A DNA stretch of 36,759 bases, from the NCBI GenBank assembly GCA_965214935.1, contig CBDCCS010000024.1, forward strand, positions 1-36,759, in the 5' to 3' direction. Of this stretch, positions 22,756 through 28,065 are shown one piece after another. This stretch comes from Candidatus Velthaea sp. Its GTDB lineage: Bacteria > Vulcanimicrobiota > Vulcanimicrobiia > Vulcanimicrobiales > Vulcanimicrobiaceae. How positions within the stretch are numbered: position 1 is the stretch's first letter; the number at the start of each line of letters is the position of its first letter. Both the position numbers and the translations under genes were made by a program. Under the pieces are notes generated by a model. That model was not told the origin of the DNA and searched no databases. It saw only the letters and a list, made by a program, of their open reading frames with translations.

Positions 22756-24021
22756 TCACGTAACGCGTTCGAGCGCGATTCGGGCTGCTTCGTTTTGGCC
22801 ATGGATCGCCCAATCCAGCGGCGTTCCGGACCACAACGTATCGCGGATATCGGTTCGTGCACCGCGCGCGAGAAGAAACTCGATCAAGTCGGCCCGATCG
22901 TCCGCCGCCGCCTGATGCAGGGCCGTGCTATGTGCATGGACCGGCAAGAACGCATCGACATTCGCCGCCGCGTCGAGCGCTACTTGCGCCGCTGCGGGCT
23001 GTCGGTTGATGACGGCCAAACCGAAGGCCGCCTGCACGTCATCCGCGCTCGCAGCGGCCAGCAGCGTGGCAAGCTGACCAATTTCTCCGAGCGCGGCCGC
23101 GATCAACGCGCTAGGCGGATAACCGTATTGGCGTAACTCGCGCAGCGCATCGAGTTCCCGGTGAGCGGCAGTCCAGAGCACGGTGTCGCGCGTTGCGTGC
23201 GCGCCGGCGGCGAGCAGTTCGCGCATGAGCGGCGTTTGCTGCCCCTGTTCGCGGGCCGCGGAACTCGTCATGACCAAATTCAGCGCGTAGTCGAGATCGT
23301 CCGGCTCAACGCCGCGTTCGATCATCGTGCGCGCAATATCCGGACTGTTGGGCGCCATTTGATCGACGAGCGTCGGATTGTTGGCAATGAACCAAAACAG
23401 TTTCGGGTCGCGAAAATAATCGGAGCGCGTCGCCAGCCGGTACGCTTCGGGTCCGACGTTGCGCTCGTGCAGTAACTGCGGTTTGGCAGCGAGGAGCTCG
23501 CGCAAGGCCGCAACGTCGCCGCCATGAATAGCGGCAACCGCGGCGCGAAACGTCGGGTCGGCGATCGTGCTGCGATCTAGGAGCGCGACAATCGCGGCAC
23601 GTTCGCGCGTTCGGCCGCGCCGCGCTGCGTCGAGGGCGATGCGCCCGGCGCGATCGGGTTGCCAGACGAGCGCGCCGCCGGCGATCAACGCTTCGACGAC
23701 TTCTAACGGTCCGTGTCGCGCGGCAAGGTGTAACGGCGGCTCGCGGCCGTCACCGGTGCGCGGATTCACGCCTTCGGCGAGCAGACGGCGGACCTGCGCG
23801 ACGTCGCCGGCGCGGATCGCCGCAACCAGCGGTGACCGGCGAACGCCGCTCTCGCCCGACCGCCGTGCGGCTTCACGCAGCAACGCCGCCCAATTTGGAA
23901 ACCCGTAGGATTGCGCGATTTCGCGCTGTGCGGCGGCGAGCTGCACCGAGCGTTCACGCGCGAAGCGCTTGGCGTGTTTGCGCAAATACTCGGCCGACGG
24001 GCGTAACGGCAGGGCGGGCAT
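22756..24021 (-). CDS. Ankyrin repeat protein with small N-terminal helical domain
   Basis: Ankyrin motifs SPLVAAIRAGD, PPLHLAARHG, TALHQAA, TPLDWA; N-terminus LPLRPSAEYLRKHAK...AQREIAQSYGFPNWAAL. Confidence 0.9.
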   Translation of the reverse strand: MPALPLRPSAEYLRKHAKRFARERSVQLAAAQREIAQSYGFPNWAALLREAARRSGESGVRRSPLVAAIRAGDVAQVRRLLAEGVNPRTGDGREPPLHLAARHGPLEVVEALIAGGALVWQPDRAGRIALDAARRGRTRERAAIVALLDRSTIADPTFRAAVAAIHGGDVAALRELLAAKPQLLHERNVGPEAYRLATRSDYFRDPKLFWFIANNPTLVDQMAPNSPDIARTMIERGVEPDDLDYALNLVMTSSAAREQGQQTPLMRELLAAGAHATRDTVLWTAAHRELDALRELRQYGYPPSALIAAALGEIGQLATLLAAASADDVQAAFGLAVINRQPAAAQVALDAAANVDAFLPVHAHSTALHQAAADDRADLIEFLLARGARTDIRDTLWSGTPLDWAIHGQNEAARIALERVT

Positions 24022-24125
24022 GGTTCGTCCTTTCCTGGTGTGCCCGACGTCCGCAAACGGGCAGGAAAGGTCGAACGAATCGACACGCAGCGAGCCGGTG
24101 GGCTGAGCCCTTTCCGCGGACGGGT
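24022..24125 (-). promoter_or_regulatory. Structured 5' leader (candidate cis-regulatory RNA) of the ankyrin gene
   Basis: 14-of-15 bp stem occluding the RBS, inner hairpin, and 10-bp loop-to-upstream complementarity with strand-specific G.U pairs. Confidence 0.6.
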
Positions 24126-24283
24126 GACCGCCGTTTCGGCCGCCGTCCTTTTCCGTGCCGCCACGGGCGTTTCCCGGCTGCCGGTTTTCGGGACTTCTAT
24201 GCTCGCGCTACCGCAGATCCGGCTGGTTCGTGCTGCGGCGCCTTCGGCAAGGTGCGCATCGCGGCGCGGCAAACGACATTATC

Positions 24284-24646
24284 ATGCAGTCAGACAATTC
24301 GACCTTACGCGGCGTCGACTTCACGATGTATCTGGTCGATGATATGCCGCGGGCGCGCGCCTTTTATGAGGCGCTCTTCGGCTTGACGGCCGGTGCGATC
24401 GACTCCGAGTATTTCGTCGAGTACGACCTTCCGGACGGCGGTACGTTGGCGCTCGCCAGAGATCCCAGCGCGGCTCGCGAGCCGTCGGGCGGCGCGATGT
24501 TCGGCGTAACGGATTCCGAAGCGTCGATCGCGCGGGTCGAGCAGCTTGGGGGCAAACTCCTACGCCGGTACAGCGGCCCCAATTGCAGCACGGGCTGGTG
24601 TATGGACACCGAGGGCAATCCGTTCGGCGTGCATCAGCGCAAGTAG
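24284..24646 (+). CDS. VOC (glyoxalase/bleomycin resistance) family protein
   Basis: VDDMPRARAFYEALFGL, FGVTD...VEQLGG, DTEGNPFGVHQ. Confidence 0.88.
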   Translation: MQSDNSTLRGVDFTMYLVDDMPRARAFYEALFGLTAGAIDSEYFVEYDLPDGGTLALARDPSAAREPSGGAMFGVTDSEASIARVEQLGGKLLRRYSGPNCSTGWCMDTEGNPFGVHQRK

Positions 24647-24734: not shown

Positions 24735-25205
24735 CTAATAGCAACTCCCGCGCTCGCGAATCGCGCGAATTTCCGTTGGGCTGAGGGAGCGCACCGGGGT
24801 CAAACACGACGTATCGAACTTCTTTAGTGTCTCTTTAGTGATGGCACCGGCCGCTTGAAACGGCGCGTAGCTGGCATCGGTGATCGTAGTGCCGTTACTC
24901 GCATCAAACTGCGCGGTCCACGCTTCGGCTTGCTCCTGGGCATACTCGTCGACGATCGAGTTTGGCAGCGTCGTGGGGACGGAGATGGTGGCTCGGCGCA
25001 TGTTGATATCCGCAAGCTGGGCCTGAAGATCAGTGTTGAGCGCGGTGAGCTTCGTGGATTCCAGGTTGACGCCTGGGGTGAGTTGGAGCAGTTCATGCAG
25101 CGTGGCGTAGGTGCCATCTTTACCGATCATGAGCATCCGACTCTTTGTAGAAAACCCGTTGGCGTCGACGAGCGAGATGCCGGTTAGTCGGTGGTTTCGA
25201 CTCAA
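24735..25205 (-). pseudogene. Chimeric ORF ending in an XRE/HigA-like regulator N-terminal fragment
   Basis: Last ~38 aa AGAITKETLKKFDTSCLTPVRSLSPTEIRAIRER resemble the N-terminus of HigA-type HTH antitoxins, stopping before the HTH; the upstream part is unrelated. Confidence 0.5.
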
Positions 25206-25389
25206 TAATTATTCGTATGTCCGATGGCGACTGAATTTGCTTTTCTTAGAAATCCAAGATGGAAGGCCTCCGCTCGCAGGCCTTCGTGCCTGTCGAATGT
25301 AGGTGGGCGGCGAATACCTGACGCGTTTTGAGGTCTTTTTTCGCGCAAACGCCGATGCAAGCACGAGCCTTCGAGTAGAATGAACTAGA

Positions 25390-25908
25390 TCAACTTCTGC
25401 ACCCGGCATCACACCCAGAGCACCAAAACGTCGGAAGATGATTCTTCTTATATGCGTCACGGGCGACGCAATCGATCCTCCTCCAGTAATTAGACGCCCC
25501 GGCAAATAGTGCGACCCCTCCAGGTGAGCGCCCGCCGGAAAGATCAAAATAGAGATTACCACTGCCGATCACCTGGCTACCATCCTGGTGATCTGAATCT
25601 TTAAAAAAGAAAATTAGTTTATCCGCTACCTTCGTAAACATCAGCGCCCAGCGCCGAGTTCGCGGAGTTGCCTCGAGAAGTGTCCGCATAACAATCAGTT
25701 CGTTCTGCGTTAGTCGAAAACCGCCGGCATCGCGGTAGCAGGTTGCGTAGTAAGTCTTCGGTTGCATATAGTGTGAAGTGGCGGACGCCTCTGAAGCATC
25801 AACTGCCGAAAGGAACAGCATAGTCATCAGGTTTAAAGCGAATAATGATCCCACTATAAGCCGAAATCGAGTCCAGCTTTGCCCTGCCGCGCAGATATCG
25901 GTCCGCAT
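25390..25908 (-). CDS. Hypothetical exported/membrane-anchored protein in low-GC block
   Basis: 172 aa ORF with N-terminal hydrophobic segment and Cys-rich tail (FWCSGCDAGC). Confidence 0.5.
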   Translation of the reverse strand: MRTDICAAGQSWTRFRLIVGSLFALNLMTMLFLSAVDASEASATSHYMQPKTYYATCYRDAGGFRLTQNELIVMRTLLEATPRTRRWALMFTKVADKLIFFFKDSDHQDGSQVIGSGNLYFDLSGGRSPGGVALFAGASNYWRRIDCVARDAYKKNHLPTFWCSGCDAGCRS

Positions 25909-27711: not shown

Positions 27712-28065
27712 ATGCAATTGAAGTTGGCATTTGTGGCGTACGCGGTGAGCGACGTCCGGCGCGCGCGAGCGTTTTATACCGAAGTTCTTGGTTTGACGCC
27801 TGGCGAATCGTTCAGTCAGAATTTTATCGAGTTCGACCTGGGCGACGCAACGTTCGCGATCGACGCGGAGCCCCCGGGCATTGTGCCTGGCACGTGTTCG
27901 GGGGTTTCGTTCGAGGTCGACGACGTCGCGTCGACGCGCGCCCTGCTCGCAGAACGCGGCGTCAAGATTACCGGTGTGATGGAGTCGCCAGTTTGTTGGT
28001 TTGCATTTGCCACCGATCCGGACGGGAACAGTTTCCAGATTCACGAGCGAAAACTGACGAGGTAA
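27712..28065 (+). CDS. VOC family protein
   Basis: AVSDVRRARAFYTEVLGL, SFEVDDV, DPDGNSFQIHER. Confidence 0.9.
   Translation: MQLKLAFVAYAVSDVRRARAFYTEVLGLTPGESFSQNFIEFDLGDATFAIDAEPPGIVPGTCSGVSFEVDDVASTRALLAERGVKITGVMESPVCWFAFATDPDGNSFQIHERKLTR

Follow-up and report, generated by a model that had tools for sequence, protein, structure and literature searches.

The ankyrin-repeat gene of Candidatus Velthaea sp. analysed here is preceded by a conserved, covarying RNA structure that comparison of sequences identifies as a cis-regulatory leader, predicted to bury the RBS. The leader is real, widespread and uncatalogued, and is likely to be a structured translational leader that serves as an autogenous operator. 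It lies on the reverse strand of a stretch of 36,759 nucleotides, referred to as the window. A preliminary description of this DNA, as carrying a riboswitch-like leader that sequesters the RBS, is upheld to that extent, and all five elements that it named were found in place; three further elements had escaped it: P1, the pseudoknot PK1 (24133-24131 with 24098-24096) and the CC/GG stem from which the kissing loop projects. The features are as follows.

24022..24143, reverse strand: structured leader, long type; covariance model (CM) R1 match at 24019-24150.
24150..24174, reverse strand: tentative alternative-sigma boxes GGAA-N17-GAAA, identified by eye in the window's lineage.
24126..24141, reverse strand: P1 hairpin, GGCC/GGUC; 87% of cells paired and 2 of 4 pairs compensatory in 61 leaders.
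24131..24133, reverse strand: 5' strand of PK1, CGG within the P1 loop; PK1 84% paired, 4 of 4 pairs compensatory.
24114..24124, reverse strand: Pa, a CC/GG stem presenting the kissing hexamer GUCCGC (24121-24116).
24100..24113, reverse strand: conserved AA junction and P2 hairpin, GGGC-UCA-GCCC.
24096..24098, reverse strand: 3' strand of PK1, CCG, which closes the three-way core.
24077..24095, reverse strand: linker of variable sequence and conserved length (IQR 21-25 nt, 96 leaders).
24063..24076, reverse strand: anti-SD strand of P3; 13 pairs in the MFE.
24042..24062, reverse strand: P4 hairpin, its loop holding the kissing partner GCGGAC (24054-24049); P4 93% paired across 61 leaders.
24023..24036, reverse strand: Shine-Dalgarno (SD) arm, predicted paired; mean unpaired probability 0.106.
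22756..24021, reverse strand: gene of 421 aa, N-terminal domain (NTD) followed by ankyrin repeats.
23863..24021, reverse strand: NTD, three helices with a basic helix 1 (R14, K18); AlphaFold2 pLDDT 83.9, and residue conservation.

The CM R1 match, from a model whose training set included the window leader itself, was the only one in the window's genome. The leader was letter-identical across contigs of the four sequence runs compared (4/4), some of which are possibly the window's own source, and three contigs from other organisms align to 24095-24143 only. The segment 24144-24280 was considered as part of the motif and ruled out, as homology begins at P1, which is probably the 5' end of the transcript. 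No terminator-like site was present in the window leader. Folded as a single sequence, this leader did no better than its shuffles (z -1.06; z -0.86), and the proof of structure is for that reason comparative and not thermodynamic.

A search with the NTD confirmed 511 genome loci, and the best 80 of them were retrieved. The leader was at least partially present in 79 of these 80, one copy being cut by a contig end and one consisting of the 5' core alone; the remaining locus, L045, had none. The record titles of these best 80 of 511 name Acidobacteriota, Eremiobacterota, Pseudomonadota, Verrucomicrobiota, Actinomycetota, Gemmatimonadota and Chloroflexota, together with Planctomycetota, Poribacteria, Methylomirabilota, Ignavibacteria, Aliifodinibius and Deltaproteobacteria, and the leader occurs in more than ten phylum-level groups. 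Removal of near-duplicates and truncated copies from 89 leaders left 61, which were aligned with MAFFT on sequence only; in this alignment RNAalifold selected the long-range helix unaided. The preliminary description had looked to covariation upstream of homologues, and it is present: compensatory changes occur at 32 of 36 pairs of the full model, which has 88% of cells paired against 33-49% for slid controls and was equalled in 0 of 500 shuffles (kinship uncorrected). P2, already recognized as a mini-hairpin, was 97% paired, with one pair A-U in 30 leaders and G-C in 28, and the junction A was invariant in the 61 leaders. The C-G pairs of Pa were kept in 60/61 and 58/61 leaders, with one compensatory change each. 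PK1 was 83-100% paired in a further alignment, A5, although it had been left out of the CM.

The kiss (6 bp) was paired in 61/61 leaders, with compensatory changes at five of its six pairs. In protein-first sets, where a crude pattern parsed 106 of 128 loci (21 unparsed, 1 duplicate), it was intact at all six positions in 103 of the 106, and 15 of 18 variant hexamers were compensated; the three failures were one truncated leader and two mis-parses. These figures are preferred to those from A5, which are biased, many of its rows having been chosen on the kissing sequences. The loop pseudoknot of the preliminary description is, as predicted from these alignments, a loop-loop kiss. Of the 10-bp complementarity assigned to it, conservation covers the central 6 bp (24121-24116 with 24054-24049) and not the flanking column pair; when the upstream segment was shuffled 1500 times, a 10-bp run arose in 1% of cases. 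The helix said to bury the RBS through 14 of 15 pairings also stands, and here it was the count that needed correction. G24062 had been used twice; it can belong to the anti-SD helix or to the inner stem, one at a time, the MFE having 24076-24072 paired with 24027-24023 and 24070-24063 with 24036-24029. The inner stem that had been seen to expose the loop, GCCCG/CGGGC, is the 5-bp P4, stacked on the anti-SD helix in the MFE. The anti-SD strand covaries with the SD. Natural deletions in L002, L031 and L011 keep the 5' core and have lost the anti-SD/P4 domain; in L031 the partnerless kissing hexamer has drifted. A very diverged leader was seen at L222:1501-1627 (G062; 27 bits), with PK1 and kissing sequences altered, and the protein downstream (167 aa, no NCBIfam family) has an NTD-like head at its start. 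A loose core pattern run on viral contigs gave 1 real match and 16 apparent chance matches.

In most homologues the leader is predicted to sit between a sigma-70-type promoter and the start codon. Among 232 leaders, 201 TAnnnT boxes fell within one 7-nt interval before P1, compared with 5-7 in control intervals, and a -35 peak was located 23 nt upstream (60 TTG(A/C)(C/A) boxes). The TAnnnT box is missing from the window and from most of its lineage (L324-L341), in which GGA(C/A)-N15-17-GAA(C/A/G) is mostly found in place of the sigma-70 promoter; these boxes are possibly the promoter of an alternative sigma factor. The lineage-specific promoter-like boxes showed no genome-wide enrichment, and no match to SigH scored over the cut-off.

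Several other observations concern the DNA around the leaders. In the window, a VOC/glyoxalase gene (24155-24646, forward strand) is divergent from the leader. At a distance of 3 kb, a second VOC-like ORF (27712-28065, forward strand; by eye) has a resolvase fragment and a MarR-like gene (by eye) as neighbours; the VOC-like ORFs, MarR-like gene and resolvase fragment suggest a variable island. Two ORFs of 156 and 172 aa at 24735-25908 (reverse strand) have no Pfam match and a G+C content lower than their surroundings (by eye). A group II intron fragment close to the Methylosinus copy was found at L229:232-349 (105 bits).

The NTD is 55-85 aa long across the family (53 residues in the window) and is carried by about 7,700 clusters at 50% identity. 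No Pfam family scored over cut-off for the window head, the rest of the ORF being ankyrin repeats. The nearest homologues of this protein point to Eremiobacterota. Fold searches with the three-helix AlphaFold2 model returned no match with Z over 4.5 or E under 2.6, Atlas matches were unnamed and under 0.9, and none of the fold and family searches of the NTD indicated RNA binding; a model of the full-length protein, built from one sequence, was of low quality (pLDDT 51.6) and was set aside. Many proteins have internal NTD repeats, which retain the hydrophobic core. Of 406 first copies, 98% have lysine or arginine at profile position 16 and 99% at position 20; the corresponding shares for 76 internal copies are 17% and 28%, in a comparison that ignores phylogeny and uses an HMM seeded on first copies. 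These positions are R14 and K18 of the window protein; the basic residues in helix 3 of the long form are missing from its NTD. We propose that the NTD may be an RNA-binding head. Membership of Glyoxalase_8 (PF20066) was considered and rejected, the match covering the N-terminal part only at 12.7-14.3 bits (E 0.04-0.13; cut-off 23.7 bits). The N-termini of Glyoxalase_8 and PRK05973 do share with the NTD a helical head of the form LKxxAKxL...A(x)xxG(F/Y)xxW, but the NTD matches both below their curated cut-offs. No PF20066 gene was present in the 5 genomes searched for the leaders of such genes.

The leader follows the NTD and not the ankyrin repeats, in a near-exclusive coupling that holds whatever domain comes after. 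A pattern for the RNA alone found at least 120 loci in metagenomes, and among the matches listed the next gene had the NTD in 115 of 120, the remaining five being two contig ends, two broken NTD starts and one unrelated; among those listed, unrelated sequence thus lies downstream in 1 of the 118 assessable RNA-first matches. In 151 actinomycete genomes (order of G151) there were 32 with CM matches and 32 with protein profile matches, 31 of them shared, and a CM match abuts 35 of 37 NTD genes, the other two having a core-only or diverged leader (by eye). The window's family, defined as 20 genes sharing its ankyrin body at 55% identity or above (two from the window's genome), has the leader in 11/11 genes with the NTD and 0/9 without it, all of them kin; leader and NTD are adjacent, and linkage alone accounts for part of this co-loss. 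A paralogue at G000:C18:42093-43163 (L010), 62% identical in the ankyrin body, has neither NTD nor leader. At L007 the leader has decayed and K16 is lost together with it; at L045 the NTD is intact and the leader absent. The preliminary description had suggested similar leaders upstream of related ankyrin genes in other phyla, which is borne out as to the many phyla; the view of this as an ankyrin leader is not supported. Behind leader and NTD the cargo is mostly ankyrin, and DUF1835, FliG_C and VOC fusions retain the leader; at the protein level the head is also joined to Clp_N, zf-C4_ClpX, BFN and LRR. Neighbour clustering found no conserved operon beyond genus-level synteny and no pathway signal. 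The distribution is patchy (9/151, 32/151) and plasmid copies exist. Many of the homologues (P0014 included) are tagged 'peptide-methionine (S)-S-oxide reductase' by one source with ankyrin as the only domain listed, and this label is probably a propagated mislabel.

Two further types of leader were found. NTD-VOC genes in Rhizobium, Bosea, Phyllobacterium and Sinorhizobium have the 5' core alone, 97% paired in 13 aligned leaders, with a PK1 pair U-A in 8 and C-G in 5; one further copy is from an actinomycete (core-only loci L223, L226, L231, L279, L281, L293, L294, L297, L299, L300, L304-L306 and L343). These leaders have no kiss, no anti-SD and mostly no clear SD. A rival helix, which GCGCCC beside the AUG could form with GGGCGC of P1/PK1, is 91% paired and is present, by eye, in the MFEs of about 11 of the 13 leaders, with covariation no higher than in shuffles; on this model, folding of the core is predicted to leave the start codon free and so to be the ON state. 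Five VOC homologues without an intact NTD also have no core-only leader.

The other type precedes PRK05973 genes, which are labelled 'DNA helicase'. The NCBIfam match between PRK05973 and the NTD is weak (E 5e-5), and HHalign gives 96.4% (E 1.4e-9), which supports homology of the PRK05973 N-terminus to the NTD as a distant relative. A leader of the same topology and other sequence was found at 9/9 of these genes (8 by pattern, L353 by eye): L346-L354, in G417, G382, G478, G529, G542, NC_008762.1, CP090106.1, NZ_CP081125.1 and CP155823.1. Its 5' part has a C-rich P1 loop with a GGG tail, a CCC/GGG stem presenting CCUCC, AA, and a P2 that is GCAU/AUGC or GUAU/AUAC; then follow the linker, the anti-SD and a P4 loop GGAGGG. 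The kiss of this type is invariant, hence a predicted pairing. Such a kept architecture with changed nucleotides is as expected of a co-diverging RNA-protein pair. The type is present in Sinorhizobium meliloti; a second PRK05973 genome sample gave no additional locus. Downstream of the PRK05973 gene at L347, positions 1293-1358 hold a SorX-like sRNA just below the gathering score.

We propose, at chances a little better than even, that the double-pseudoknot leader is an operator for translational autoregulation, bound by the NTD of its own protein. Basic helix 1 would bind the 5' three-way pseudoknot core. In the OFF state of the long type, the bound, folded core would withhold GGAAAGG, the P4 loop would dock through the 6-bp kiss and the anti-SD would pair with the SD; linker length suggests that folded core, kiss and anti-SD helix can coexist. 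In the ON state, an unstabilized core could let the kiss lengthen as transcription proceeds; the resulting collinear duplex would take up the anti-SD and leave the SD free. The domain behind the head (ankyrin, VOC, DUF1835, ATPase) would serve as cargo, and perhaps as a sensor modulating binding. When the SD is forced open, the window fold lengthens the kiss into the 5' purine run. The collinear ON duplex as drawn lies 12 kcal/mol above OFF in the window (the median SD-opening cost in the leaders is 8.4), so the ON state would have to be kinetic. The preliminary description had GGAAAGG as able to capture the anti-SD, as an anti-anti-SD; the pairing is possible, being compatible in 79-99% of 100 aligned leaders, but its role as the switch is not supported, and this step of the long-type ON state is weak because there is no covariation (column pair 44/127 is A-C in 15 and G-C in 7) and the open-state MFE employs it in just 14/96 leaders. 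Compared with shuffled duplexes, the cognate anti-anti-SD has a z of -2.3, against -15.9 for anti-SD:SD. The coupling of RNA to NTD, the leader kept before non-ankyrin fusions, the lack of conserved neighbours, the basic residues of first copies, the double loss at L007 and the PRK05973 parallel, all read from sequence, support autoregulation. Against it stand the fold and family searches of the NTD that gave no sign of RNA binding, the energetic cost and non-covarying anti-anti-SD of the long-type ON state, the intact NTD without a leader at L045, the high nucleotide conservation of the core, which is equally typical of an aptamer, and the core-only leaders, where binding would turn expression ON, which is unusual for autoregulation. 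This predicted opposite polarity speaks most strongly against plain negative feedback, and in favour of a riboswitch or a ligand-gated head.

An orphan small-molecule or ion riboswitch, in which the core or the core-P4 interface would bind a metabolite or toxic compound linked to NTD function, seems to us unlikely but deserving of serious attention. It would account for a core that is compact, highly conserved and invariant at its junction nucleotides, for the two pseudoknots, and for one core serving two expression platforms of apparently opposite polarity; the VOC cargo is weakly like bleomycin-binding proteins (E 6e-7, below cut-off), which would suit an ON switch. However, an unrelated gene follows in only 1 of the 118 assessable RNA-first matches listed, the leader precedes 0/9 homologues without the NTD, the neighbours give no pathway signal, and the PRK05973 leaders have the core sequence rewritten with the topology retained. 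Some riboswitch classes are tied to a single gene family, and confinement to one makes a riboswitch less likely without excluding it. Translation might otherwise be kept low by a ligand-free, kinetic or ribosome-coupled dampener, or at a site for a host protein, with the linker as standby and the NTD not the binder. The OFF fold, dominant at equilibrium, the conserved linker length and the persistence of 5'-core-only deletions (L002, L031, L011) are all in keeping with this, but it leaves the strict one-domain coupling, the first-copy basic residues and the parallel PRK05973 leader unexplained, and we consider it improbable. Type III toxin-antitoxin systems have tandem pseudoknot repeats and a terminator ahead of a nuclease toxin, and a pseudoknot RNA immediately upstream of its partner gene, patchily distributed (9/151, 32/151) and at times on plasmids, recalls their logic: the RNA would inhibit the protein and translational control would be secondary. 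The single copy in place of a repeat array, the lack of a terminator-like site in the window leader, a cargo that in nearly all cases is not a nuclease (ankyrin in the window) and the covariation of anti-SD with SD render this very improbable.

Comparison of the window with Rfam gave no match, in agreement with the preliminary description, which had recognized no known riboswitch class: at Rfam 15 gathering thresholds there were 0 matches in the window and 0 in 20 homologous loci, and in E-value searches the leaders were unmatched in 8 further loci and 5 PRK05973 loci. The window's matches to M23 and Methylosinus-1 (E 0.8-9.6, search up to E 10) were dismissed as chance. The motif was not found in literature searches. 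The terms 'ankyrin' and 'glyoxalase' are absent from the main texts of PMC5737381 and PMC11109978, whose supplements lay outside the search and may bear on novelty, from the main text and one supplement of PMC8632094 and from 8 supplements of PMC2864571; the main text of PMC11109978 defines a 'protein binding candidate' category.

The leader has likenesses to several known systems. Autogenous translational operators include ribosomal-protein leaders, such as that of rpsO bound by S15, and the thrS operator. Like these, the leader is confined to one gene family and has a pseudoknot near the RBS and a small, basic, helical protein as likely binder; unlike them, its head is uncharacterized and fused to exchangeable cargo, no rRNA or tRNA mimicry was identified, Rfam holds no match and binding is predicted. 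ZTP (pfl) and kissing-loop cobalamin riboswitches dock a 5' subdomain and a 3' hairpin across a variable linker through a loop pseudoknot. The leader has this arrangement, but has no Rfam similarity to E 10 and no purine or B12 genes, and its RBS is hidden by a separate 13-bp helix. In fluoride (crcB) and preQ1-II/III riboswitches, as here, the partner of the P1 loop is a tail lying 3' of the inner hairpin; the leader differs from them in its conserved nucleotides, has an added kissing module and again gives no Rfam match. TipA, AlbA and ClpC2 are one-component sensor-sponge autoregulators that bind DNA; they resemble the system proposed here in joining a nucleic-acid-binding head to a ligand-binding body and controlling their own synthesis, and differ in that the target proposed here is the gene's own mRNA leader.

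A broader proposal, which we advance as speculative and rather doubtful in its entirety, is that these form a superfamily of RNA regulators that are one-component and portable. A promoter, a pseudoknot leader and a small RNA-binding head would move as one cassette, and the sensors or sponges behind it would be interchangeable (ankyrin, VOC, DUF1835, FliG_C, RecA-type ATPase; Clp_N is a further partner of the head). Every lineage would have its own co-evolved pair, a ligand of the cargo would gate binding, and the core would be wired OFF in the long type and ON in the short. The three natural variants (long, core-only and PRK05973-type) permit clean swap tests, and the presence of the PRK05973-type variant in S. 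meliloti makes it testable in a laboratory organism. Orthogonal RNA-protein pairs would serve as translational control parts. Leader and NTD together represent a riboswitch class not catalogued before or else a novel RNA-binding domain and the operator it acts on; in both cases a role would be found for thousands of genes that now carry the label 'ankyrin protein', 'VOC protein' or 'DNA helicase'.
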